A stretch of DNA of 64,000 nt from an uncultured Solirubrobacterales bacterium (GCA_963774075.1 CAVZDP010000005.1:260360-324359), one strand, 5' to 3'; positions 54,082 through 64,000 are shown, counted from the first letter of the stretch. Notes: generated by a model not told the origin, from the letters alone. Made by a program: numbers and translations.

Positions 54082-54860
54082 GGCCGGCAGACTGCGACGA
54101 AGTCGAGCGCGCGGTCGAGCTCCTGTTCGCGCAGCTCGAAGTCGCGCTCGCCGATGGCGGGCACGAACCAGGCGTAGAAGCGCTTCGTGAGGCCCAGTGC
54201 CGGATGGACGCGGTCCCAGCCAAGCCGCAGCGCCGCCTCGTGCGCCTTCAGCTTGCGCGCGTGAAAGAGTCCGAGAAGCTGGAACCGGGCGAAGCGCGGC
54301 GCGAGCAGGCGCTCGAGCTCGGCGGCCGTGTACTCGTGTACGTGCCAGGGGTTGTCCGAGCGCGCCGCCCCCGGAGGGGCGAGCGTGAGGCGATTCGGGG
54401 TGCTCACGTAAACCGCGCCGCCCGTGTTGAGGAGCGACGCGAAGCGCTCCAGCAGCTGCCCCGGGTGTTCCACGTGCTCCACCGTCTGCAGGAAGACCAC
54501 GGCGTCGTACGGAGCGCCATCGTCGAACTCCTCAACGAGAGCTCTCTCGAAGGAAAGGCCCGGACGAGCGTACTTGCGGTGGGCGTGCTCGAACGCCTCG
54601 GGGTTGGCCTCGACGCCAACCACCTCCGAGGCGGAATCGGCGAGCACCGCGGAGCCATAACCCTCGCCGCACGCCATGTCGAGCACGCGCATTCCGCGGC
54701 AGCGCTCGGCGATCCAGCGATAGACGGCGAGGTGGCGCCGGTACCAGTAGTTCTCCTCCGGGATGTCGGGCAGCGTGCGCTCGCCGGTCAGCTCGAGAGG
54801 CGGCACTCCCGGGGGCTGGTCACGCTGCAGGTACCTCGGCTCGCTCACGCACGCAATCAT
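54078..54860 (-). CDS. class I SAM-dependent methyltransferase (Rv3030-like position)
   Basis: SAM motif I VLDMACGEGYGSAVLA, post-I VVGVEANP, ...DAVVFLQTVEHV...GGAVYVSTPN. Its stop overlaps the GH57 start (4 nt). Confidence 0.8.
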   Translation of the reverse strand: MIACVSEPRYLQRDQPPGVPPLELTGERTLPDIPEENYWYRRHLAVYRWIAERCRGMRVLDMACGEGYGSAVLADSASEVVGVEANPEAFEHAHRKYARPGLSFERALVEEFDDGAPYDAVVFLQTVEHVEHPGQLLERFASLLNTGGAVYVSTPNRLTLAPPGAARSDNPWHVHEYTAAELERLLAPRFARFQLLGLFHARKLKAHEAALRLGWDRVHPALGLTKRFYAWFVPAIGERDFELREQELDRALDFVAVCRP

Positions 54861-54911
54861 TCCGAAAGCGCGAGCTCCCGGCCCTTCGCCCCCGTTATCC
54901 TGCCCGCCACC

Positions 54912-55829
54912 GTGAGCCGCGACGCGCCGACCGCCAAGCAGATCAAGGACGTGAACCTGCGTTATCACGACGCGGCGGCCGACAGCTATGACAGCAAATG
55001 GGGGATCGACTACGGAGACGTCGGCCGCCGGCAGGTGCTGATGAAGCTCACCAAGGCGCTCGGAAAGAGGCCCGGTCACTACCGCCGGGCGCTCGAGGTG
55101 GGCGCCGGAACCGGCTACTTCTCGCTCAACCTGCTGCGTGCCGGGGTGATCGGCGAGGCGACCGCGACCGACATCTCCGACGGCATGCTGCGGCGGCTGT
55201 CCGCTACAGCGAGCACGCTCGGCGTGGAGGTCGAGACCGTGCGCTCCGATGCCGAGCGGCTCCCCTTCGCGGACGGCCACTTCGACCTCGTGCTCGGCCA
55301 CGCCGTGCTCCACCACCTGCCGGCGCTCGACCACGCGCTGGCCGAGTTCAACCGCGTGCTCGCACCCGGGGGGACCATCGCCTTCATGGGCGAGCCTTCG
55401 CGCTACGGCGACCGCATCGCGGCCGTTCCGAAACGGATCGGCATCCTCGCGGCTCCGGCATGGCGGCGACTCGTCGGCGCGCCCAGCTCCGCGGACGGGA
55501 ATGACGCCGACGCCGAGGACGACGGCCACCGACTCGAGCCGTGGGTCGACGTGCACGTCTTCAGCCCAGGCGAGCTGCGCACCATGGCGGCGCGGGCGGG
55601 CTTCACGGAAGTGCGGATCTCCGGGGAGGAGCTCGTGGCCAGCGCCTACGGGTGGCTCCTGCGCTCGCTCCAGGCCGACTCGGATCCCGAGGAGGTCCCC
55701 CGCGGCTGGCACCAATTCGCGTTCCGCAGCTACCTGGCGCTCCAGTGGCTCGACGGCAACGTGCTCGAGTCGCGGCTGCCCCCAGGGCTCTTCTACAACC
55801 TCCTCCTCTCGGGCCGCAAGCCCGGATAG
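54912..55829 (+). CDS. class I SAM-dependent methyltransferase
   Basis: ALEVGAGTGYFSLNLL (motif I), ATDISDGML, FDLVLGHAVLHHL, PGGTIAFMGEP. The GTG start is divergent from the other methyltransferase, with a 51-bp gap. Confidence 0.8.
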   Translation: MSRDAPTAKQIKDVNLRYHDAAADSYDSKWGIDYGDVGRRQVLMKLTKALGKRPGHYRRALEVGAGTGYFSLNLLRAGVIGEATATDISDGMLRRLSATASTLGVEVETVRSDAERLPFADGHFDLVLGHAVLHHLPALDHALAEFNRVLAPGGTIAFMGEPSRYGDRIAAVPKRIGILAAPAWRRLVGAPSSADGNDADAEDDGHRLEPWVDVHVFSPGELRTMAARAGFTEVRISGEELVASAYGWLLRSLQADSDPEEVPRGWHQFAFRSYLALQWLDGNVLESRLPPGLFYNLLLSGRKPG

Positions 55830-55866
55830 CCCAAGCGCTCCCCACCCGTTCCCTACACTGGGATCC

Positions 55867-56493
55867 GTGGCAGGGCAAGTCGAAGACCTACCCCTCTTCC
55901 CGCTCCCGATCGTCCTCCTCCCGACCGAGGTCGTGCCCCTCCACATCTTCGAGGATCGCTACAAGACGATGATCTCGATGTGCCTCGACGACGGGAGCGA
56001 GTTCGGCGTCCTGTGGCTGTCCGACGACGGGCTGAAGGAGGTCGGCTGCACAGCGAAGGTGACCGACGTGCTGGAGCGCAGCGACGACGGTCGCATGAAC
56101 GTCCTCGTCGAGGGCGGAAGCCCCTTCCGGCTGCTCGAGCGACGGGAGGAGCACGTTTACCCGGCCGGCGACGTCGAGCTTCTGAGCGACCGCGGCGACC
56201 GGGCCGAGGAAACCGTCGGAGAGGAGGCGCGAGAGCGGTTCGCCGAGCTCGTGGAGCGCGTCACCGAGAGCCGGCCCGAGCAGGAGGCCCTGGCCGAGCT
56301 CGGCGCCTACGAGATGGCCGCCACGGTCGACATCGGCGCCGAGGTCAAGCAGGGACTGCTCGAGCTGCGCTCCGAGAAGGCGCGGATGCGCCTGCTCTCG
56401 CGCCTGTTCAAGGCAGCGATGGAGCGGCTCGAGGTCGCCGAGCGGATCGCCGAGCACGCGCGCCAGAACGGCAAGGTCAGGTTCAGCTCCTAG
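55867..56493 (+). CDS. LON N-terminal (substrate-binding) domain protein
   Basis: LPLFPLPIVLLPTEVVPLHIFEDRYKTMI...FGV (the Lon N-domain start motif). No AAA or protease domain. GTG start at 55867. Confidence 0.75.
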   Translation: MAGQVEDLPLFPLPIVLLPTEVVPLHIFEDRYKTMISMCLDDGSEFGVLWLSDDGLKEVGCTAKVTDVLERSDDGRMNVLVEGGSPFRLLERREEHVYPAGDVELLSDRGDRAEETVGEEARERFAELVERVTESRPEQEALAELGAYEMAATVDIGAEVKQGLLELRSEKARMRLLSRLFKAAMERLEVAERIAEHARQNGKVRFSS

Positions 56494-56531: not shown

Positions 56532-58436
56532 CTATCCGCGCACGATCGTGAAGCGCGCTCGCCTGCCCGAAGCAGAGCGGTTGCCCGCCGCGTCGGTCGC
56601 GGTGATCGTCGCCTGGTAGCGGCCGCGCCGCAGCGCCTTCCGCTTCAAACGTCCGCTGAACGCTGTCGTGTTGGCGCCGGTGCGAGCGCTGCGCCGCAGC
56701 TCCCCGGTGAACGTGTAGCGCGTGCAGCGGCGGCGCTTGCGGAGGCGGCGAGTCGGCTTTCGACAGCTTTTCCCGACACGCCTGCCGATCCGCGCCCGCC
56801 GGATCGCGATCCGCACGGTGGCAGCCTCGGACAGGGAGTAGCGGAACTGCGTGCCCTTCTTCGTCCGGCGCCGCTTCGCGCGGGCAGCCGTCAGCGCCGT
56901 CGGCTCGGATCCGACCGCGAAGCGCTTGCGGGTAAGCGAGAACGCGCGCACGTCGGGCGCGCTCAGGTCGGCGACCGACCCCGGATCCGCACCGCCCCCG
57001 ATGCCCGGCGGGGGGTCGCCGTCGAATACGGCCGCCTCGATCGCCCCGCCTCGCTGCCAGACGACGACGGCATCGCCCTGCGAGTCGGTCGCCACCTGTG
57101 GCAGCGACGCGCCACTCGGGGCTGGAGCGATCCCGACCGGAGCCGAGAACGACCCCCCGGGCGAGCGCAGGGACGCCACGATGCCGAGCCCCGGTCTCGT
57201 GCCGGAGTGCCGCCACACGGCGAACATGGCGCCGAACGGGTTGGCGGCGATCTGGGGGCTGGCGACGGTCTCGCCGCCGAGTACGTCGCCGGAGATCGAG
57301 ACAGCCGGGCCGAAGAGCCCTCCCGGCGGACGCGAGGAGGCGAGGATCGACTTCGAAGTCGTCTCGTCCCAGACGGCGACCGCGGAGCCGCCCGGGTCCG
57401 ACGCCACCTGCGGGTCGCGAGCTCCGGGTGCGGAGAGGGTCTGCGGGCTCGTGAACACGCCCGCCTCGCGGATGTCCGAGAAGACGGTGCCGGAGCCGCC
57501 GGCGTCCGAGCGCCAGACGACGACCACGTCACGCTGCGCGCTGGCCGCGAGCTGCGGGGCGACCAGCCGAGTAGTGCTCGTCGTGGAGGAGGGGACGGCG
57601 CTCTCGTTGGGCGGGAAGGAGTCTCCAGCCGGTCGCCGCGAGTAGGCGATCGCGTGGTCGGGTGGGGGCGGCTGGGGCACGTGCACCAGCTCGTGCGCCC
57701 AGGCCACGAACGCCCCGCCCTCGGAATCGAAGCCGATCTGAGGGTCGCTCAACCGGACGTTGTCGTCGGAGTCGCCGTTGATCCCCTCGAGCTGGACGTA
57801 GCCACCGAACGCCGCCCCGCCCGGCGGCCTGACCGCTGCCTCTATGTTCGCGACGCTCGAGCCGGGATCCCCCGGGATGTCCCGGGCGTGGCGCCAGACG
57901 GCGATCGCGGTGCCCTGTGAGTCGATCGCGACCTGCGGCTGGGCGACCTCGTCCGTCGTCTCGCCCAGGGACGACTCCACGACCACCTCCCTGAGCATCG
58001 GCGCCAGTCCGAAGCTGCCGCCCGGTGGTCGGATCGCGGTCTCGATCCTTTCGGTAACGCCGTCGGGAAGCACCGTGTGCCAGACGGCAACCGCCGTGCC
58101 GTTGGCGCCGATCGCGACCTGCGGCTCGACCGCAAGGCCGCCGCTCGAGATGACCTGCGCCGGGCCGAACGAGCCGCCCGGCGGGCGCACGGAGGCCTCG
58201 ATCTCCGACCCGCGCTCCCACACCGCAACCGCCGTGCCGTCGGGCGCCGCGGCGACCTGGGCCTTGGAGGCGCCGGCTCCGGAGATCGCGCTCGCCGGCA
58301 GCCAGCCCGCTCCAGCCCAAGCCGACAGCGGTATGGCGAGCGCCAAGGCGCACGCAGCCGCCGCAGCCGCCGCCGCGATTCCCTGCCGCCTGCCGCGCGA
58401 TGCGCGGGCGGCCCTCACTCCCCTTGCCGCCCTCAT
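56532..58436 (-). CDS. secreted repeat protein (~8 propeller-like blades) with a basic C-terminal Ig-like domain
   Basis: Signal-like MRAARGVRAARASRGRRQGIAAAAAAAACALALAIPLSAWA. About 8 repeats with consensus PQVA.d..G.AvAVW...(n)...IEA.vRPPGG.FG.P. The C-terminus (...QFRYSLSEAATVRIAI...GRYQATITATDAAGNRS...FTIV) is very Arg/Lys-rich. The start may be the upstream TTG at 58517. Confidence 0.65.
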   Translation of the reverse strand: MRAARGVRAARASRGRRQGIAAAAAAAACALALAIPLSAWAGAGWLPASAISGAGASKAQVAAAPDGTAVAVWERGSEIEASVRPPGGSFGPAQVISSGGLAVEPQVAIGANGTAVAVWHTVLPDGVTERIETAIRPPGGSFGLAPMLREVVVESSLGETTDEVAQPQVAIDSQGTAIAVWRHARDIPGDPGSSVANIEAAVRPPGGAAFGGYVQLEGINGDSDDNVRLSDPQIGFDSEGGAFVAWAHELVHVPQPPPPDHAIAYSRRPAGDSFPPNESAVPSSTTSTTRLVAPQLAASAQRDVVVVWRSDAGGSGTVFSDIREAGVFTSPQTLSAPGARDPQVASDPGGSAVAVWDETTSKSILASSRPPGGLFGPAVSISGDVLGGETVASPQIAANPFGAMFAVWRHSGTRPGLGIVASLRSPGGSFSAPVGIAPAPSGASLPQVATDSQGDAVVVWQRGGAIEAAVFDGDPPPGIGGGADPGSVADLSAPDVRAFSLTRKRFAVGSEPTALTAARAKRRRTKKGTQFRYSLSEAATVRIAIRRARIGRRVGKSCRKPTRRLRKRRRCTRYTFTGELRRSARTGANTTAFSGRLKRKALRRGRYQATITATDAAGNRSASGRRARFTIVRG

Positions 58437-58513
58437 TGCCGCGACAACGCTACCACCACCCCAGAGCGGCTGGAGCCAGTTTTCGCGAAGCTCGGGCTTC
58501 GCCGCGGGAGCCC

Positions 58514-60094
58514 TCAAACCGTGATCGCCACCCCGCCGCGGCGAGGATCGCCCCCACCGGCCAGGGCTCCGCTCTCGGGGTCGCGATAGACGGACTGCGT
58601 TCCGCCGAAGAACAGGTTCACGCCCTTCCAGCGCACGAGCTCGTACCCACGTCGCTCGAGCTCGGCGAGCGCCTCGGCGTCGAAGCCGCTCTCGACGTGC
58701 AGAACGCCCGCCTCGTAGTGCATGCGCCCGAGCCGCACGGCCTCGTCGACGGGGAACCCGTAGTCCACGACGTACCTGATCACCTGCGTGATCGCTGAGC
58801 GCAGGCGGTTGGAGCCGGCACTTCCCAGCGCCAGCTCGATCTCGCCGCCCCGAAGGACGACCGTGGGGGCCATCATGCTCGTCACTCGCGTGCCGGGCGC
58901 GAGCCTGTGGTAGCCGAGCGGGTTCAGATCCTCCTCGCCGAGCATGTTGTTGAGGTGCATGCCGGTCCCGGGTGGCAGCACCCCCGAGCCGGTGCCGTTC
59001 GAGCAGGTGACGCTTGCCGCGTTGCCCTCGCCGTCGAGAACGGCCACGTGAGTCGTCGATCCGACGGCGTCGCCGCCGGCGGACGCGCGCTCGCTCCGGT
59101 GGCGCTCGATGCTGCCTGCGATCCGGCGCCGCGCCTCCTCGATGTGCGAACCGGAGAGGAAGCGCTCGGCGAACCCATCGTCGTGCAGGCGGTCGTGGAA
59201 GTCGCCACCCCGGGCTCGCTGTGCCTCTGCCATCACCTCGACAAGCAGCGCGAGGGCGTCCGGATCGTCCAGCGGAAGCGGCCCGCCGGAGTGCTCGAGC
59301 AGGTCGAGTGCGAAGGCGATGAGGATTCCGCCGGAGGACGGCGGCGGGTTCGTCAGCACCCGGCGGCCTCGGTAGGAGGCTTCGACCGGGCGGCGGTCGA
59401 CGACGCGGTAAGAGGCGAAGTCCTCCGGGTCGAGCGTCCCGCCACGCTGGCTCACCCAGTTGCAGATGCGCTCGCAGACCTCCCCAGAGTAGATCCAGCC
59501 GGGGCCTTCGTCGCCGAGCCGCTCGAGCGCGTCGGCGAGCTCCGGAAAGCGAAAGACGTCACCCTCCTCGAGCAGATGCCCCTCCGGCGCGTACAGCGCC
59601 CGGGTCTCCGGAAAGTGGGTGACGACGGGCTCGAGCACCTTGAACATGTACGCCTGCATCGCGGACACCGGCACCCCCTCGCGCGCGAAGCGCGCGGCCG
59701 GCTTCACGAGCTCCGGGAACGGCATCGAGCCGAAGCGGCGCGACGCCTCCCACAGCCCCGCCGGCACTCCCGGGACGCCGCACGAGGCGGGCCCGATGTT
59801 GAAGAGCTGTGGCGTCTCGTCGAAGATGACCTCGACGGCGACGAGGTCGCTGCGCGTGGAGGCATCGATGCCGCGCCCCCCCGCCTCGACGAAGAAGTCG
59901 AGCAGATGGTTCTCGCCGGAGGCGGTGTGGACGAGCAGAAAGCCCCCGGCGCCGAGCGCCGTGAGCTGGCTCTCGACGGCCAGCGAGGCGAGCACCGCGC
60001 AGATCGCCGCGTCGAACGCGTTCCCCCCTTCGCTCAGCACCTGCGCGCCGGCCTGCGCGGTGAGAGGATGGCCGGCCGCGATCACCCCGCTCAT
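58514..60094 (-). CDS. ggt: gamma-glutamyltransferase family protein
   Basis: MSGVIAAGHPLTAQAGAQVL..., autoprocessing/nucleophile region GSTTHVAVLDGEGNAASVTCSNG, ...GGDPRRGG. No obvious signal peptide. Confidence 0.85.
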   Translation of the reverse strand: MSGVIAAGHPLTAQAGAQVLSEGGNAFDAAICAVLASLAVESQLTALGAGGFLLVHTASGENHLLDFFVEAGGRGIDASTRSDLVAVEVIFDETPQLFNIGPASCGVPGVPAGLWEASRRFGSMPFPELVKPAARFAREGVPVSAMQAYMFKVLEPVVTHFPETRALYAPEGHLLEEGDVFRFPELADALERLGDEGPGWIYSGEVCERICNWVSQRGGTLDPEDFASYRVVDRRPVEASYRGRRVLTNPPPSSGGILIAFALDLLEHSGGPLPLDDPDALALLVEVMAEAQRARGGDFHDRLHDDGFAERFLSGSHIEEARRRIAGSIERHRSERASAGGDAVGSTTHVAVLDGEGNAASVTCSNGTGSGVLPPGTGMHLNNMLGEEDLNPLGYHRLAPGTRVTSMMAPTVVLRGGEIELALGSAGSNRLRSAITQVIRYVVDYGFPVDEAVRLGRMHYEAGVLHVESGFDAEALAELERRGYELVRWKGVNLFFGGTQSVYRDPESGALAGGGDPRRGGVAITV

Positions 60095-60191: not shown

Positions 60192-61571
60192 CTAGCGCCC
60201 GGGAACGAACTCCGGGACCTCTAGGTCGAACGAGAGCCCGGAGTCGCGTGTTCTCCTGACCCGCGGCTCGCCGGACGGCTCGCGGAACGCTCGGGAGCTC
60301 GACCGGCGCGTCGGCCGGTCGCCGTAGCCGGTGGCGACCACCGTTACCCAGCATTCCTCGTCGAGCTTGTCGTCGACCATCGCGCCGAAGATGATGTTGG
60401 CGCTCGGGTGAGCCGCCTCCGAGACGGCCCGGGCCGCCTCGTTGACCTCCCACAGGGAGAGGTCCGTGCCACCCGTGATCGACAGCAAGATCGAGCGAGC
60501 GCCCTCGACGGACGTCTCGAGCAGTGGAGACGCGACCGCCTGCTCCGCTGCCTCGATCGCTCGCCGCTCGCCAGTCCCCATGCCGATCCCGAGCAGAGCC
60601 TGCCCGGCGTCGGTCATGATCGTCCGCACGTCGGCGAAGTCGAGGTTGATGAGCCCCGGCAGCGTCACGAGGTCCGAGATTCCCTGCACGCCCTGGCGCA
60701 GGACGTCGTCGGCGACCTTGAACGCGTCGATCATCGACGTGCCCTTGTCGAGCACGGACAGCAGCCGGTTGTTCGGGATCACGATCAGCGTGTCGACGCA
60801 CTTGGACAGATCGGTCACACCCTCCTCGGCCGCGGACGCACGCCGGCTGCCCTCGAAGCCGAAAGGCTTCGTGCAGACGCCGACGGTGAGCGCTCCGATG
60901 GCCTGCGAGATAGCGGCCACAACGGGGGCCGCACCGGTGCCCGTCCCGCCTCCGGCTCCGGCGGTGACGAACACCATGTCGGATCCCTTCAGGAGGCTCT
61001 TGATGCGGTCGTCGTCCGCGAGCGCGGCCGCCCGACCGACCGTGGGGTCGGACCCGGATCCGAGGCCGTGGGTGATGTCGGCCCCGATGTGGAGCGTCAC
61101 GTGGGCCGCGCTCTCCTGGAGCGACTGCAGGTCGGTGTTGACGGCGATGAACTCGACGCCCTCGACCCCCGCTTCGATCATGCGGTCGACCGCGTTGACG
61201 CCGGCGCCGCCGACGCCCACGACACGAAGCACGGGCTTGCGCACGCCGCGAGACACGATCCGGGGCTCGTCGCGCGGCCGGGACCTCGACTCGCCGGGGC
61301 GCTCCAGCACATCCGTCGGGATGTCCTGCGAGAAGGCGGCGCTCAGGCGCTCCTTCGCGGTCGGGACCGGGCGCGGCTCGTCGTCGCGGCGCAGCGCACG
61401 CGGCTCATCGCGTGGGCGCCGCTCGTCACGGGTGCGCGACTCCTCGCGCTTCCCCTCCACCGGCTCCTCGCGTGGGCGCTCGGGCGGGCGCGAGCCATCG
61501 TCGGCTGTCGTCTTCCTGAAGAGCTCGGCGAGAGGGCCCTCGCGCATGCTCGCCCTCTTATCGCTACCCAT
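60192..61571 (-). CDS. ftsZ: cell division GTPase FtsZ with ~105-aa N-terminal extension
   Basis: VVGVGGAGVNAV, tubulin signature GGGTGTGAAPVVA, T7 loop NLDFADV, C-terminal peptide DLEVPEFV. ATG 61571 is preceded by AAGGAGG at 9 nt spacing and overlaps the upstream stop (AATGGGTAG). ATG 61547 is also possible. G/C third-position bias persists through the extension. Confidence 0.9.
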   Translation of the reverse strand: MGSDKRASMREGPLAELFRKTTADDGSRPPERPREEPVEGKREESRTRDERRPRDEPRALRRDDEPRPVPTAKERLSAAFSQDIPTDVLERPGESRSRPRDEPRIVSRGVRKPVLRVVGVGGAGVNAVDRMIEAGVEGVEFIAVNTDLQSLQESAAHVTLHIGADITHGLGSGSDPTVGRAAALADDDRIKSLLKGSDMVFVTAGAGGGTGTGAAPVVAAISQAIGALTVGVCTKPFGFEGSRRASAAEEGVTDLSKCVDTLIVIPNNRLLSVLDKGTSMIDAFKVADDVLRQGVQGISDLVTLPGLINLDFADVRTIMTDAGQALLGIGMGTGERRAIEAAEQAVASPLLETSVEGARSILLSITGGTDLSLWEVNEAARAVSEAAHPSANIIFGAMVDDKLDEECWVTVVATGYGDRPTRRSSSRAFREPSGEPRVRRTRDSGLSFDLEVPEFVPGR

Positions 61572-62673
61572 TCCCAAGGACCTCCTTAGCCAGATCGCGG
61601 TAGGCCTTCGCAGCCACTCCGTGCGGATCGTATTTCAGGACCGAGGTCCCCTTGACTGGAGCTTCCGCAAAACGGATCGTTTTCTTTATGCGCGTGGCGA
61701 ACACGCGCTCCCCGAAGTTCTCCTCGAGGATCTCTATCGCCTCCTTGGCGTGCACGGTGCGGCTGTCGACCAGGGTAGGGAGGATGCCCTCGATCTCGAC
61801 GCCCGGGTTCAGCTCCTCCCGGATCATCGACAGTGTGTTCTGGAGCTGGACCAGCCCCCGCATAGACAGATACTCGCACTGCACGGGCACGATAACTTTG
61901 TCGGCGGCCGTCAAGGCGTTGATCGTCAGCAGGCCGAGCGACGGAGGCGTGTCGATGCAGACGAAGTCGTAGTCCTCCAGCACCGGCCGCAGCGCCTTGT
62001 CCAGAGATCGCTCGCGCCCGATCTGCGTGCTCATCGCGATTTCCGCGCCGGCGAGGTCGATCGAGGCGCAGGCGACGTCGACCTCGCGCTTGCGGACCAC
62101 CTCGCGGATCGAGATGTGGTCCACGAGCACGTCGTACATCGACCTGTCGACCGAGTCCGGGTCGATGCCCTGGCTCATCGTCAGGTTGCCCTGAGGGTCC
62201 ATGTCGACGGCCAGAACCCGATGGCCGGCCTCGGCGAATGCGACCGCGAGGTTCAGGGTCGTCGTCGTCTTGGCGACACCACCCTTCTGGTTGGCGAACG
62301 CGATCACCTTGGCCTTGGCGACCTGGGGGGCGGGCGGCGTCGATTTGGCCTCTCCCGCGCGCAGAGGCCCGTCCGGTCGGCCGGGCTTCGTCATTCGCGA
62401 GCGGCCGAGCGACGCCGGCGGTGCCTCGGCCGGTGCCGCCGCCCTTGGCGGCTCGAACTCCCGCGCCTCGGCGAGCGGGTGGTCACGCACCTCGACCTGT
62501 GGCGTTGAGCTGGGGGTGGCGTTCACGGCATCGTCCTCTTGTTCGGAGGGGGCCGGCGTCGACTCCCGGGCGGGAGGCGTGGACTCCTCCTGGGCGGGAG
62601 GCGCCTTTGGCATCCGGCTGGGCGCCTGTCCCGACCTCTGGTCGGGAAGGCCGAATCGCTGGAGTAGACCCAT
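61564..62673 (-). CDS. ParA/Soj-family (MinD/ParA superfamily) ATPase with disordered N-terminal extension
   Basis: Deviant Walker A NQKGGVAKTTTTLNLA, DMDPQGNLT, FVCIDTPPSLG. About 115 aa of P/E/A/S-rich sequence precede it if ATG 62673 (MGLLQRFGL...) is used. The start is uncertain; internal ATG/GTG candidates exist. Confidence 0.8.
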   Translation of the reverse strand: MGLLQRFGLPDQRSGQAPSRMPKAPPAQEESTPPARESTPAPSEQEDDAVNATPSSTPQVEVRDHPLAEAREFEPPRAAAPAEAPPASLGRSRMTKPGRPDGPLRAGEAKSTPPAPQVAKAKVIAFANQKGGVAKTTTTLNLAVAFAEAGHRVLAVDMDPQGNLTMSQGIDPDSVDRSMYDVLVDHISIREVVRKREVDVACASIDLAGAEIAMSTQIGRERSLDKALRPVLEDYDFVCIDTPPSLGLLTINALTAADKVIVPVQCEYLSMRGLVQLQNTLSMIREELNPGVEIEGILPTLVDSRTVHAKEAIEILEENFGERVFATRIKKTIRFAEAPVKGTSVLKYDPHGVAAKAYRDLAKEVLGNG

Positions 62674-62791
62674 TGCGCGGTTATTCGCATCGGCGGGCGG
62701 TATTCCTTCCCGTGCGACGCGGCTTTCAGGTCCGTGCAGCGTTAAGCTCGGTGCGATTGCCTGACGGATCAGCTCTCGAAGGATTGACCGA

Positions 62792-63601
62792 GTGAGTTCC
62801 GGGCTGGAGAGCCCGGGAGGACGTCGCATCCTCCTGGCGGCGCTGATCGCGTTCGCGGCCGGAATGTACGCGCTGCTCTGGCTCGACGAGGGGACCTACA
62901 ACTCGCTCATCGACGAGGACCGCTGGATCGAGGGCCCCGGGACCCTCGGCCTGCTCGCGGCCTCGCTGTTCTTCTTTGGCGGATTTCTTCGCGCCCGCAG
63001 GCGCGAGCCCGGCCGGCGGCCGCCACGTCTGCTGCAGGCCTCGCTGCTCGCGCTCGCCATTCTCTTCTTCGTCGGCTTCGGCGAGGAGATCAGCTGGGGG
63101 CAGCGATTCCTCGGGATCGAGACGCCATCGAACATCAAGGAGGCGTCCTCGCAGGACGAGATCAACTTCCACAACCTCGAGTTCGGCGGCGACGTCGTCG
63201 ACGCCGACCGCCTGTTCCAGCTCTTCTGGTTCACGTTCGGCGTCCTCGTGCCGGTGGCAAGCGCCACATCGGTGCGAGTGCGGCGGGTGCTTCGCAGGAT
63301 TCTGCCGATCATGCCGCTGCTGGTGAGCGCCGCGCTCGTGGCCAACCAGCTTCTCGACTGGGTCGCGCACGAATACTTCGAGGACCGCTATCACAACGAC
63401 GGCTTCCCGTTCTCCCACAGCCTGTTCGAGACCAAGGAATCGGTCACCTCGGTGATCCTGGCCTTCGGCGCCTGGTACGTCTTCAACAGGCTCCAAGCGG
63501 GGTCGGCGGATGCGCTGCATCTGCCCGAGGACGACAGCTTCGGCCGCCGGATCGCGCGGGCGATCAGACGCGGCGGGCCGCGAGCCGAGCACCCCGGCTA
63601 G
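62792..63601 (+). CDS. hypothetical integral membrane protein
   Basis: About 6 hydrophobic segments and the motif FVGFGEEISWGQRFLG. No family recognised. GTG start. Confidence 0.5.
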   Translation: MSSGLESPGGRRILLAALIAFAAGMYALLWLDEGTYNSLIDEDRWIEGPGTLGLLAASLFFFGGFLRARRREPGRRPPRLLQASLLALAILFFVGFGEEISWGQRFLGIETPSNIKEASSQDEINFHNLEFGGDVVDADRLFQLFWFTFGVLVPVASATSVRVRRVLRRILPIMPLLVSAALVANQLLDWVAHEYFEDRYHNDGFPFSHSLFETKESVTSVILAFGAWYVFNRLQAGSADALHLPEDDSFGRRIARAIRRGGPRAEHPG

Positions 63602-63646: not shown

Positions 63647-64000
63647 GTGCCCGTGGCCTCGATCCTCGACAAACGGCTCATCTTCGTGACCGGCAAGGGC
63701 GGGGTTGGCAAGTCCACCGTCGCGGCGGCGCTTGGGATCGCCGCCTCGAGACGCGGAAAACGGGCGATCGTCTGCGAGGTCGCCCAGCAGGAGCGCATGT
63801 CGCGAGTGTTCGAGCGCCAGGGGGTCGGATACCACGAGACGGAGATCGCGCCGAACCTGTCCGCGTTCTCGATCGACCCGCAGCGCGCGCTCGAGGAGTA
63901 CCTGCTGCTCCAAATCAAGATCAAGCCCCTCTACGACCTGATGTTCAAGAACCGCATCTTCACGTACTTCGCCGCGGCGACGCCGGGGATGCGCGAGCTC
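63647..64000 (+). CDS. ArsA/Get3-like anion-transporting ATPase family protein (partial, continues past window)
   Basis: Hand translation: VPVASILDKRLIFVTGKGGVGKSTVAAALG...AFSIDPQRALEEYL. It has a P-loop of the ArsA family. The frame is open to base 64000. Confidence 0.75.
   Translation, partial: MPVASILDKRLIFVTGKGGVGKSTVAAALGIAASRRGKRAIVCEVAQQERMSRVFERQGVGYHETEIAPNLSAFSIDPQRALEEYLLLQIKIKPLYDLMFKNRIFTYFAAATPGMREL

Follow-up and report, generated by a model that had tools for sequence, protein, structure and literature searches.

The DNA analysed here, a 64-kb stretch from an uncultured Solirubrobacterales bacterium that we refer to as the window, contains an ftsZ gene that overlaps the gene of a ParA/Soj-type ATPase and encodes an FtsZ with a long N-terminal extension. 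The question that this locus raises is whether the two genes are only expressed together, or whether their products also act on each other. The pairing suggests an unreported way of placing the division ring in an order of soil actinobacteria, and no account of a ParA-like gene overlapping an N-extended ftsZ was found in the literature searched. The genes and their control elements are arranged as follows:

58514-60094, minus strand: ggt (gamma-glutamyltransferase; TIGR00066, 364.8 bits)
60192-61571, minus strand: ftsZ, an ORF starting at ATG 61571
61564-62673, minus strand: ParA/Soj-type ATPase gene, an ORF starting at ATG 62673
61564-61571, minus strand: overlap ATGGGTAG, with the ftsZ start codon within the last codons and stop of the ParA-like gene
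61581-61587, minus strand: AAGGAGG, Shine-Dalgarno sequence of ftsZ, read directly 9 nt ahead of the start codon
62681-62706, minus strand: promoter-like element GGAATACCGCCCGCCGATGCGAATAA (GGAAT-N14-CGAATA), ending 7 nt before the ParA-like ATG

The initial annotation had placed this ftsZ outside a dcw context, and the wider survey agrees: dcw genes, ftsQ, ftsA and parB were all absent among the 55 ORFs scanned in the 64-kb window, and dcw genes were absent also from the 20-kb flanks of the related loci whose gene tables were read. The ParA-like gene has ftsZ, ggt and ArsA-like ATPases as its neighbours, with no ScpA or ScpB families among them in the gene tables of the loci. A tblastn search with three ParB proteins gave no matches in 85 loci (10 kb around the pair) or in the window. 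With no parB within 10 kb, ftsZ therefore takes the usual place of the ATPase's partner gene. The third gene of the conserved triad, ggt, starts 97 nt 3' of ftsZ on the same strand and is the next gene after ftsZ in most related loci; a search of the ftsZ-ggt interval for a terminator-like site found none.

An N-extended FtsZ is encoded by hundreds of Solirubrobacterales genomes. The ParA-like gene lies immediately upstream of ftsZ in all 79 informative loci, that is, the related loci with DNA upstream of ftsZ. A lack of conservation among relatives, which had been named beforehand as grounds for giving up the idea of a module, was thus not encountered, and the arrangement of a ParA-like gene with an N-extended ftsZ recurs beyond chance and is a conserved trait of the whole lineage.

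The sequence ATGGGTAG is common to both genes, which therefore overlap by 8 nt, the ParA-like ORF ending in a TAG stop codon at 61564-61566. (A TTG in frame with the ftsZ ATG lies at 61577.) The Shine-Dalgarno sequence of ftsZ sits inside the ParA-like codons ..AKEVL... Among the related junctions scored, the genes overlap by 8-20 nt in 77 of 77 and are never separated by a gap; 66 loci share an overlap of 14 nt, the other 11 having one of 8, 11, 17 or 20 nt, and (A/C)AGGAGGT is found at identical spacing in all 77. Because every one of them keeps both the stop/start overlap and the internal Shine-Dalgarno sequence, expression of the two genes is very likely coupled, as the initial annotation had proposed in calling them co-translated. 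Adjacency and coupling demonstrate co-expression, not binding between ParA and FtsZ.

Upstream of the pair, the element GGAAT-N14-CGAATA recurs with fixed spacing in 63 of 77 related loci, compared to approximately none after shuffling, and a pattern scan found no sigma-70 consensus. We infer that GGAATACCGCCCGCCGATGCGAATAA acts as a promoter; because it ends so close to the ParA-like ATG, a leaderless transcript of this gene is suggested for the lineage.

The FtsZ protein is divided into the following parts:

61509-61562, minus strand: motif 1, DKRASMREGPLAELFRKT (aa 4-21), conserved in homologues
61365-61508, minus strand: N-terminal linker (aa 22-69), conservation 0.33, charged fraction 0.60
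61263-61364, minus strand: motif 2, PTAKERLSAAFSQDIPTDVLERP...RPRDEP (aa 70-103), conserved in homologues
60321-61235, minus strand: globular GTPase and C-terminal domains (aa 113-417), from Pfam and TIGR00065
60252-60281, minus strand: EPSGEPRVRR motif in the short C-terminal linker (aa 431-440), conservation 0.93
60195-60227, minus strand: docking peptide DLEVPEFVPGR (aa 449-459), with P453, F455 and P457 invariant

The core identifies the gene as a genuine ftsZ. The NCBIfam FtsZ equivalog TIGR00065, whose cut-off is 295.2, matches with 409.6 bits, the Pfam domains Tubulin (PF00091, aa 118-276, 148.8 bits) and FtsZ_C (PF12327, aa 325-417, 109.2 bits) are both found, and the best-scoring solved relative is M. 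tuberculosis FtsZ (382 bits). All three FtsZ signatures applied (GGGTGTG, the T7-loop N-x-D-x-x-D and the docking peptide (D/E)-(I/V)-P-x-F) are present in the translation, as GGGTGTGAAP, NLDFADV and DLEVPEFVPGR, and are invariant in 103 homologues. The C-terminal tail is ≈42 aa long and ends in DLEVPEFVPGR, so that the docking peptide is indeed retained; (E/D)(L/I)(D/E)(V/I)PEF(I/V/M)P is found across the species loci. Residues E431, P432, G434, E435, P436, R437 and R440 of the EPSGEPRVRR motif are invariant.

The N-terminus departs from this canonical picture. Residue 114 aligns with residue 10 of M. tuberculosis FtsZ, at the start of the globular domain, giving ≈104 additional N-terminal residues relative to that protein, which starts 9 residues before its core; canonical FtsZ has ≈10 residues before the first strand. 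GC3 is 0.80-1.00 across the extension from the first codon onward, and its invariant residues use 4-6 synonymous codons across ≈79 species loci. From this codon usage and from the conservation of its motifs, the extension, including its leading peptide, is evidently translated from ATG 61571 and under selection at the protein level, which agrees with the initial annotation and goes against the start near the globular domain that it had offered as a counter-case.

The extension, which measures 87-134 aa among the close homologues and 96-159 aa over the species loci, comprises two motifs conserved like the globular core and a variable, charged linker joining them. In motif 1 (consensus KRASMREGPLAxLFRkT) the majority residue is carried on average by 0.91 of the sequences, compared to 0.92 in the globular core. 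Residues R6, A7, S8, M9, R10, G12, P13, L14, L17, F18 and T21 do not vary among 103 homologues and 79 species loci, and the conserved basic positions are K5, R6, R10 and R19. The disordered tail has an invariant Arg and the hydrophobic residues M9, L14, L17 and F18 within its first 21 positions. Motif 2 has the consensus PxxKERLSAAFSQDIPxDvLERP..RPRDEP, with conservation of 0.88 (aa 70-92) and 0.98 (aa 98-103), and an order-wide consensus of Px(Q/K/R)ERL(R/S)xAFSx(D/E)IPxN(V/L)(M/L)(E/D). R, E, D and P make up 27%, 19%, 12% and 17% of the linker between them. AlphaFold gave a poor model of FtsZ (mean pLDDT 60) that adds little: pLDDT is below 50 in the linker, and aa 72-80 are modelled as a helix at low confidence. 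A profile search of the PDB with motif 1 and a Pfam scan of the tail each gave no matches.

The ATPase consists of three parts:

62629-62673, minus strand: N-terminal peptide MGLLQRFGLPDQRSG (aa 1-15), conserved in close homologues
62323-62628, minus strand: variable linker rich in P, E, A and S (aa 16-117), GC3 0.75-0.90
61564-62322, minus strand: ParA/Soj-type ATPase domain (aa 118-369 and stop), Pfam AAA_31 204 bits, CbiA 94 bits

The ATPase domain shares 78-91% identity among 80 orthologues. Among solved structures it scores best with M. xanthus ParA (8ray, 203 bits), followed by a protein of M. smegmatis (4pfs, 202 bits) and by Soj of Thermus (173 bits). The deviant Walker A motif is KGGVAKT in 80 of 80 orthologues, compared to KGGVGKT in Soj and M. 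xanthus ParA. The catalytic aspartate D159 is invariant or nearly so in the 80 orthologues, as are R334, which aligns with the DNA-binding R238 of M. xanthus ParA, and residues I212, L246, L248, I251, M283 and L288, which align with the six residues of the M. xanthus ParA pocket for ParB. By this alignment the ATPase retains both the pocket for the ParB peptide and the arginine by which ParA binds DNA. It thereby has the sequence features of a type Ib ParA/Soj protein (KGGxxK(T/S), catalytic Asp, surface Arg and hydrophobic pocket), except that the gene directly downstream is ftsZ instead of parB. The best NCBIfam ParA match, NF041546 (ParA_partition), reaches 119.8 bits against a cut-off of 180, and the other ParA, RepA and SopA models are far under their cut-offs. 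Pfam MipZ (PF09140) gives a partial match of 50.4 bits over profile positions 2-141 of 262, weaker than that of AAA_31; MipZ itself builds its gradient on ParB and inhibits FtsZ directly. MinD was rejected as an identity for the ATPase: TIGR01968 reaches 56.1 of the required 212.9 bits and TIGR01969 91.5 of 201.75, the protein ends in ..AKEVLGNG without a further (membrane) helix, and the neighbouring genes are not minC or minE.

In the window, ≈120 aa precede the KGGVAKT motif. They begin with MGLLQRFGL at ATG 62673, where GC3 goes up, and MGLLQR(F/L)(G/A)(L/R)P(D/E)x(R/K) is kept in 83 of 116 close homologues and in three related loci (L002-L004). The linker that follows varies from 55 to 160 aa among homologues, is not conserved in sequence and has no Pfam match (aa 16-117). 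The long ParA tail with this peptide is found in 3 of ≈80 species loci, most orthologues beginning ≈5 aa before Walker A. The matched N-terminal tails of the initial annotation are thus not a general feature of the pair; the long MGLLQR(F/L) tail is confined to the sub-lineage of the window.

The layout of the ATPase-ftsZ pair is the same as that of parA-parB and minD-minE pairs. As in ParABS, the first gene encodes a Soj-type ATPase that combines a deviant Walker A with a DNA-binding Arg and a conserved pocket for a peptide, and the overlapping gene after it encodes a protein whose disordered N-terminal tail is tipped by a conserved basic and hydrophobic peptide; motif 1 is just such a short, conserved basic peptide at the extreme N-terminus. 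However, the downstream gene is ftsZ, with no parB nearby, and the flexible arm is ≈100 aa in FtsZ compared to ≈35 aa in ParB. The peptides also differ. The ParB peptide reads L-G-R/K-G-L-x-A-L-I, with M. xanthus residues L11, R13, L15, L18 and I19 (hydrophobic residues at i, i+4, i+7 and i+8, and R/K at i+2), whereas M9, R10, L14, L17 and F18 of FtsZ fall at i, i+1, i+5, i+8 and i+9 in a by-eye comparison with the published description of ParB. The two share the L-x-x-L-(I/F) half, which in FtsZ is preceded by an additional Pro13. That motif 1 fits only with one inserted residue, and with the Arg one position earlier, counts against a partnership of tail and ATPase, as do the empty PDB search with motif 1 and the empty Pfam scan.

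The likeness to MinCDE lies in a ParA/MinD-family ATPase gene followed by a gene for a protein with an N-terminal segment, which in MinE is activating. AKERL, found within motif 2, also forms the core of the E. coli MinE contact helix (aa 18-22; sequence checked against PDB 3r9j/3r9i), whose pattern is (K/R)(E/D)RL(Q/K) and then three hydrophobic residues. The best local hhalign match, AKERLSA in FtsZ with AKERLQI in MinE, is not significant (probability 0.2%, E 0.33), and Pfam MinE has no match in the FtsZ tail even at E up to 10. The present system differs in that its ATPase lacks a C-terminal membrane helix, that minC and minE are absent from its surroundings, and that Min acts on FtsZ via MinC, FtsZ itself not being the partner. 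MipZ of Caulobacter and PomXYZ of Myxococcus resemble the proposed system in using a ParA-family ATPase for placement of FtsZ. Both MipZ and PomZ contact FtsZ, and PomX activates PomZ via a basic N-terminal peptide (PMC7993993). They differ in having separate partners (ParB; PomX and PomY), canonical FtsZ and genes outside the ftsZ operon, whereas the candidate activating peptide here belongs to FtsZ.

The reading that we lean towards, while giving it not quite an even chance, is that the ATPase has the FtsZ tail as its partner peptide, making the pair a two-gene version of ParA/MinD-type Z-ring positioning. FtsZ would have been turned into the direct partner of a ParA-type ATPase within a conserved two-gene module, both proteins being made from one transcript via coupled translation. 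The ATP-bound ATPase dimer would be expected on the nucleoid, given the retained ParA DNA-binding arginine, with its interface presenting the hydrophobic pocket that in ParA takes the N-terminal peptide of ParB. Motif 1 would be the basic, partly hydrophobic peptide at the tip of the ≈100-residue flexible FtsZ arm, with motif 2 (KERLSAAF..DIP..) as a second candidate contact on the same arm; either or both may bind the dimer and raise ATP turnover, as do ParB, MinE, PomX and McdB. Since FtsZ filaments would show many tail peptides side by side, they would bind much more strongly than monomers, and the Z ring would be placed at, or excluded from, the nucleoid region without a separate adaptor protein. 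Binding, stimulation of the ATPase and the sign of the effect on the Z ring, positive or negative, are all predictions of this scheme. Put forward more tentatively, as possible rather than probable, is that FtsZ acts as both cargo and activator of the ParA-type ATPase, its filaments directly engaging nucleoid-bound dimers through a ParB- or MinE-like peptide carried on the long arm.

The presence of two conserved motifs on either side of a freely varying linker supports a partnership of tail and ATPase. The invariant Arg and hydrophobic residues of motif 1, the strictly kept gene layout, the retained pocket and DNA-binding residues and the absence of a nearby parB speak for it too. Osawa and Erickson are said to have found in 2011 that the N- and C-termini of FtsZ exit opposite faces of the protofilament, and the N-terminal arm would therefore point from the membrane toward the nucleoid. 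To our knowledge, Actinobacteria as a phylum lack Min and Noc; if FtsZ is indeed both cargo and activator, the pair would be a minimal system of two proteins by which a deep-branching lineage of the phylum positions division with respect to its chromosome. A ParA-like protein has been tied to division in Actinobacteria in the case of PldP/Rv1708 (PMC3989709, PMC10482377, PMC4255298). The intact ParB pocket, however, would suit equally well an ATPase working with a ParB encoded elsewhere.

It is also conceivable, if rather unlikely, that the tail is unconnected with the ATPase and recruits other division proteins such as SepF, or tunes the curvature and bundling of filaments, the linkage serving only to co-regulate chromosome handling and division. 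Heterocyst-forming cyanobacteria provide a precedent: Anabaena FtsZ has a lineage-specific, conserved N-terminal extension, essential for normal division, in which the peptide aa 2-51 is needed for polymer shape, SepF interaction and placement of the division plane (PMC6175996). That extension is ≈50 aa long, compared to 96-159 aa here, linkage to a ParA gene is unreported, and the peptide works on polymer shape and SepF binding rather than by way of a ParA (PMC6175996). The weakness of the ParB and MinE motif likenesses also fits such a role, as do the two motifs in the N-terminal tail and two more in the C-terminal tail, as might be expected for a multi-partner hub. Adjacency in 79/79 loci and a shared overlap and Shine-Dalgarno sequence in 77/77 nevertheless exceed what is seen for most co-regulated, non-interacting pairs, and ftsZ sits exactly at the usual partner-gene site of a ParA/MinD ATPase, with no parB nearby.

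The orphan ParA paralogue PldP/ParA2 (cg1610, Rv1708, SCO1772) occurs in actinobacteria in addition to parAB. Like PldP/ParA2/Rv1708 and Rv3213c, the present protein is a Soj-like ATPase without an adjoining parB in the same phylum, and it has the KGGVAKT Walker A in common with M. smegmatis 4pfs. PldP is found at the septum and its loss leads to minicells (PMC3989709), and Rv1708 complements an E. coli min mutant (PMC10482377). None of these ATPases is reported to adjoin ftsZ, and the FtsZ of their hosts lacks an N-terminal extension. We consider it distinctly unlikely that the ATPase is an ordinary Soj/ParA, or a second actinobacterial ParA of the PldP/Rv1708 or Rv3213c type, with its ParB elsewhere and its gene placed before ftsZ merely for joint expression of segregation and division. 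It does match a true ParA (8ray) as well as any solved relative, has an intact ParB pocket and DNA-binding Arg, and carries the database name "chromosome partitioning protein"; furthermore, PldP and Rv1708 bind ParB (PMC4255298; PMC10482377). Against this stand the absence of parB within 10 kb in 85 loci, scores under every NCBIfam ParA/MinD equivalog cut-off, and the departure from KGGVGKT in every orthologue. An ordinary ParA would also leave unexplained why FtsZ acquired its conserved N-terminal peptide precisely in the lineage where the genes are linked.

Highly unlikely, in our view, is that motif 1 (..GPLAxLFRk..) forms a short amphipathic membrane-targeting helix that anchors FtsZ, with MGLLQRF doing likewise for the ATPase. 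Motif 1 is comparable to short membrane-targeting sequences such as KKGFLKRLFGG of E. coli MinD, being of similar size, with basic flanks and a similar hydrophobic moment (0.24-0.27 vs. 0.27), and Actinobacteria are known to lack FtsA. However, the hydrophobic stretch is very short, the moment calculation does not discriminate, and the C-terminal docking peptide, the normal path to membrane anchors, is kept; with the termini reportedly on opposite sides of the filament, anchors at both ends would conflict.

That the extension is an annotation artefact, translation starting near the globular domain, is scarcely credible: there are in-frame GTG codons near residue 105-110 and a public gene call (P0120) begins near there, but GC3 is 0.8-1.0 over the extension, the 79 species use as many as 6 synonymous codons for invariant residues, the ftsZ ATG and Shine-Dalgarno sequence are conserved, and P0120 is a split call in which the extension appears as a separate, overlapping 124-aa ORF. 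The public gene call for the ATPase (P0271) starts at Met21, and so omits the MGLLQRF peptide.

The initial annotation had described the arrangement of the two genes accurately: the reading frames of the ParA-like gene and ftsZ overlap, an AAGGAGG lies inside the former, and ftsZ stands outside a dcw context. No dcw gene, ftsQ, ftsA or parB was found among the 55 ORFs scanned over the whole 64-kb window. The scanned ORFs are housekeeping and metabolic genes (atpB, glyA, prfA, prmC, ETF, methylmalonyl-CoA mutase, glycogen enzymes and others). The features of the pair and its surroundings, in window positions, are:

62681–62706, minus strand: conserved upstream element (GGAAT-N14-CGAATA), ending 7 nt before the ATG at 62673
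61564–62673, minus strand: ParA-like ORF (ParA/Soj-type P-loop ATPase), counted from the ATG of MGLLQRFGL and open to 62829
61581–61587, minus strand: AAGGAGG, 9 nt upstream of the ftsZ ATG
61571 (ATG) down to 60192, minus strand: ftsZ ORF, with an in-frame TTG at 61577
58514–60094, minus strand: ggt, the next gene after ftsZ

The TAG of the ParA-like gene (61564–61566) falls within ATGGGTAG, so that the ftsZ ATG overlaps the upstream gene by 8 nt. No sigma-70 consensus or terminator-like site was found in the window within the pair or before ggt, and an Rfam search of the whole window returned no match. Against the NCBIfam FtsZ equivalog TIGR00065 (cut-off 295.2), the ftsZ product scored 409.6 bits, and it has the Pfam Tubulin/FtsZ GTPase domain at aa 118–276 and FtsZ_C at aa 325–417. 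Among solved structures, M. tuberculosis FtsZ comes nearest (382 bits); where this alignment begins, residue 114 of the window protein is paired with residue 10 of the M. tuberculosis protein, and the former therefore has about 104 extra N-terminal residues.

These residues are translated, as had been supposed. GC3 is 0.80–1.00 from the first codon of the extension, like the rest of ftsZ. In 79 related genomes, many synonymous codons are used for the invariant positions of two conserved motifs in the extension (motifs 1 and 2); in motif 1, Arg uses six, Leu five, Gly and Pro four each, and Ser both AGY and TCN. Selection on the two motifs thus acts at the protein level and not at the DNA level. 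The one public “short” FtsZ, the gene call P0120, was rejected as a counter-example: it is a split call, in which the extension forms an overlapping ORF of its own (124 aa). Initiation close to the globular domain was set aside, and it is extremely improbable that the extension is an annotation artefact.

Public protein sets also contain apparent ParA–FtsZ fusions, ParA proteins with internal duplications, and a “short” FtsZ with its extension called as a separate ORF (gene calls P0232, P0264, P0266, P0272 and P0273; positions 716–2091 of the related locus L084). P0232 is a frameshift-fused ParA–FtsZ call. All of these look like frameshift or assembly artefacts, not like real fusions.

FtsZ was compared in alignments of 103 homologues at 72–85% identity and of 78 species loci at 56–74% identity. 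The protein is divided as follows, with conservation given as the fraction of sequences that have the majority residue:

aa 4–21: motif 1, KRASMREGPLAxLFRkT, conservation 0.91
aa 22–69: linker, variable and highly charged (0.60 charged residues), conservation 0.33
aa 70–103: motif 2, P(S/T)xKERLSAAFSQDIPxDvLERP..(Y)RPRDEP, conservation 0.88 over aa 70–92 and 0.98 over aa 98–103
aa 113–417: globular core, conservation 0.92

The whole extension is 87–134 aa long in close relatives and 96–159 aa across the order, where the consensus of motif 2 becomes Px(Q/K/R)ERL(R/S)xAFSx(D/E)IPxN(V/L)(M/L)(E/D). At about 42 aa, the C-terminal tail is short; it carries the docking peptide (D/E)(L/I)(D/E)(V/I)PEF(V/I/M)P. 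Distinct from this terminal peptide, the short C-terminal linker contains EPxGEPRVRR (aa 431–440; 60252–60281, minus strand), with a conservation of 0.93 and seven of ten residues invariant in the 103 homologues. The 103-sequence alignment gave a poor AlphaFold2 model of full-length FtsZ, with a mean pLDDT of 60 and weakness even in the C-terminal domain; in this model the extension was disordered except for a low-confidence helix at aa 72–80. A motif 1 profile found no match in the PDB, and neither the FtsZ tail nor that of the ParA-like protein matched Pfam at E values up to 10.

A scan with the two motif patterns, using one genome per GTDB species, yielded at least 600 stretches, 470 of which were confirmed by tblastn. 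One locus can yield two stretches, which means that the extended FtsZ is carried by at least a few hundred species. The best 80 loci belong to the Solirubrobacterales in the wide sense, and include MAGs labelled Solirubrobacteraceae, Thermoleophilaceae or Conexibacteraceae as well as Solirubrobacter taibaiensis KCTC 29222 and Candidatus Solirubrobacter pratensis. The module is present in cultured Solirubrobacter strains; the Conexibacteraceae are represented by MAGs only. When a profile of the extension was searched against 1.84 billion representative proteins, 723 clusters were recovered. The 150 clusters listed were all consistent with FtsZ N-terminal pieces, most matching from residue 1, with no other protein family among them, and the 11 sequences retrieved from this search were all FtsZ N-terminal pieces.

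The adjacency on which the proposed division-site module depends is kept in relatives: the ParA-like gene lies directly upstream of ftsZ in 79 of 80 species loci, and the remaining locus has no upstream DNA. The overlap between the ftsZ ATG and the end of the ParA-like gene is 14 nt in 66 loci and 8–20 nt in 11 others, and at the junctions scored, (A/C)AGGAGGT occurs at constant spacing within the ParA codons for LAKEVL. Metagenome contigs (including two of 1.4 and 3.9 Mb) share a larger block that consists of sigma-70, a T2SSE ATPase, HxlR, two hypothetical genes and a divergent pair of ArsA-like ATPases, followed by parA-like, ftsZ, ggt and a gene for a LON-substrate-binding domain.

Upstream of the ParA-like gene, the element GGA(A/T)T-N13/14-(G/C)CGAA(A/T)A was found in 63 of 77 loci and almost never in shuffled sequences; in loci L005–L083 it lies about 30–110 nt upstream of the codons for the ParA-like Walker A motif. 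Its end only 7 nt before the ATG in the window suggests a promoter that would produce a leaderless mRNA. In most relatives, about 45 nt of leader containing GGAG separate the element from a GTG start instead.

The ParA-like protein matches Pfam AAA_31 (204 bits) and CbiA (94 bits), and falls below every curated ParA, MinD and RepA cut-off. Its ATPase domain is 78–91% identical among 80 orthologues, which makes it more conserved than FtsZ as a whole. Among solved structures, M. xanthus ParA (8ray, 203 bits) and an M. smegmatis Soj-like protein (4pfs, 202 bits) come nearest, followed by Thermus Soj (173 bits). All orthologues share the Walker A motif KGGVAKT with 4pfs, whereas Soj has KGGVGKT. 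In M. xanthus ParA, residues V116, L150, L152, L155, L187 and L192 bind the N-terminal peptide of ParB, and R238 binds DNA (bioRxiv 10.1101/2025.03.14.642875). A HMMER alignment placed these seven residues at I212, L246, L248, I251, M283, L288 and R334, all of which are invariant or nearly so. Because the pocket and R334 are conserved, the ATPase should in principle be able to bind both DNA and a ParB-type peptide.

The initial annotation had further proposed that the ParA-like protein and FtsZ have matched N-terminal tails, and this held only for part of the group. In the window the long ParA tail is genuine, with GC3 rising at the ATG at 62673. Of 116 close homologues, 83 begin with MGLLQR(F/L)(G/A)(L/R)P(D/E).., and a P/E/A-rich stretch of 55–160 aa and variable sequence links this peptide to the rest of the protein. 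The public gene call for the window protein, P0271 (349 aa, 100% identical), starts at Met21 and leaves out the MGLLQRFGLPDQRSG peptide (62613–62673, minus strand) that is conserved in those 83 homologues; this start is probably mis-annotated. Most species loci, however, lack the tail and start, usually with GTG, about five residues before KVIAFANQKGGVAKT, while a few have a short version, MGLF(D/E)(R/K)K or MGFFDRR. Judged from these starts, the ParA tail is an elaboration of a sub-lineage; the FtsZ tail occurs throughout the group.

Genes for ParA/MinD ATPases typically precede the gene of their partner (ParB, MinE or McdB). Here, ftsZ occupies the partner position behind the ATPase gene, with the reading frames overlapping. 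ParB contacts ParA through a short helix that has an R/K at its centre and hydrophobic side chains at positions i, i+4, i+7 and i+8; good binding depends on two copies of the peptide being kept together (bioRxiv 10.1101/2025.03.14.642875). At the tip of a disordered arm, motif 1 presents an invariant Arg with M9, L14, L17 and F18, and relative to the ParB pattern a single residue is inserted. The AKERL of motif 2 also forms the core of the contact helix in MinE, as checked against the sequence in PDB 3r9j/3r9i, and this region was the best, but not significant, local match between motif 2 and MinE in hhalign. Taking the gene position and the two motifs together, we propose, with a confidence that falls a little short of even, that the FtsZ tail binds the ATPase, probably activating it, and that polymerised FtsZ would display the tail multivalently. 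The N- and C-termini of FtsZ reportedly leave the protofilament on opposite faces, as described by Osawa and Erickson in 2011; the N-terminal arm would therefore point towards the nucleoid, where the DNA-bound ParA-like dimer would be located. The Z ring could be either recruited, as in the Pom system, or excluded, as by MipZ, Min or Noc; the sequence does not decide. Beyond the conserved motifs, the conserved pocket and the conserved coupling, we infer this mechanism.

It is also conceivable, if somewhat unlikely, that the tail recruits other partners or shapes polymers, for which there is a precedent in Anabaena FtsZ (PMC6175996), and that the linkage to the ParA-like gene reflects co-regulation only. 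We consider it unlikely that the ATPase is Soj or an actinobacterial second ParA with a ParB partner encoded far away. ParB binding and an influence on where the septum forms are documented for PldP and Rv1708 (PMC4255298; PMC3989709; PMC10482377); no ParB-like gene was found by tblastn with three ParB queries within 10 kb in 85 loci or in the window. That motif 1 is a membrane helix seems quite improbable, and the hydrophobic-moment calculation cannot tell such a helix from a protein-binding one.

How the division site is chosen in Actinobacteria is a long-standing question. To our knowledge, these bacteria lack MinCDE and nucleoid-occlusion proteins. PldP, Rv1708 and similar ParA-like proteins have been implicated in the choice, and we know of no direct link between them and FtsZ. 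The operon of ftsZ with a ParA-like gene provides a genomic ParA–FtsZ link across a whole order, in which FtsZ has gained conserved short motifs of the kind recognised by ParA/MinD ATPases. Each component belongs to a familiar class: FtsZ, a Soj-type ATPase, and short linear motifs on disordered tails. The apparent novelty lies in how they are combined, with ftsZ coupled downstream of a ParA-like ATPase gene and a candidate partner peptide on FtsZ itself, and searches of full-text literature gave no description of an N-extended FtsZ or a parA–ftsZ operon for Thermoleophilia/Solirubrobacterales. If the tail does bind the ATPase, this would be simpler than any other known ParA-based positioning system, with a cargo that carries its own activator peptide, and the usually ignored N-terminus of FtsZ could serve as a regulatory arm. 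The peptides are short, the pocket residues are known and there are cultured Solirubrobacter carriers, so that a link from a ParA-type ATPase to FtsZ can be put to a concrete and direct test in a phylum with unexplained division-site selection.

Some features of the flanking DNA were also observed. Across the order, ggt keeps its place directly after ftsZ and in the same orientation, in most of the 80 species loci and most of L001–L085, with no terminator-like site between the two in the window; we are not aware of any function that would explain this linkage. In the window, a gene at 56532–58517 (minus strand), located between ggt and the LON-substrate-binding-domain gene, encodes a protein of 661 aa whose N-terminus resembles a signal peptide and which has repeated G(T/S)A(V/I)AVW units, a basic C-terminal region and no Pfam match; it is missing from this place in the related loci L002, L084 and L085. 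The GC3-based calls for a methyltransferase gene (54204–55829, plus strand) and the LON-substrate-binding-domain gene (55501–56493, plus strand) overlap by about 330 nt, and their true starts are probably further downstream, because their Pfam domains do not begin before aa 276 and aa 130. On the other side, relatives have two divergently transcribed genes for ArsA/CbiA-type P-loop ATPases upstream of the ParA-like gene (L001, 6738–9475; L002, 6825–9034; L085, 7726–9860), with a weak resemblance to the mycobacterial BagA/BagB models. The start of one such gene lies at 63647–64000 (plus strand) in the window, separated from the ParA-like gene by an extra membrane-protein gene at 62792–63601 (weak TgpA_N match).
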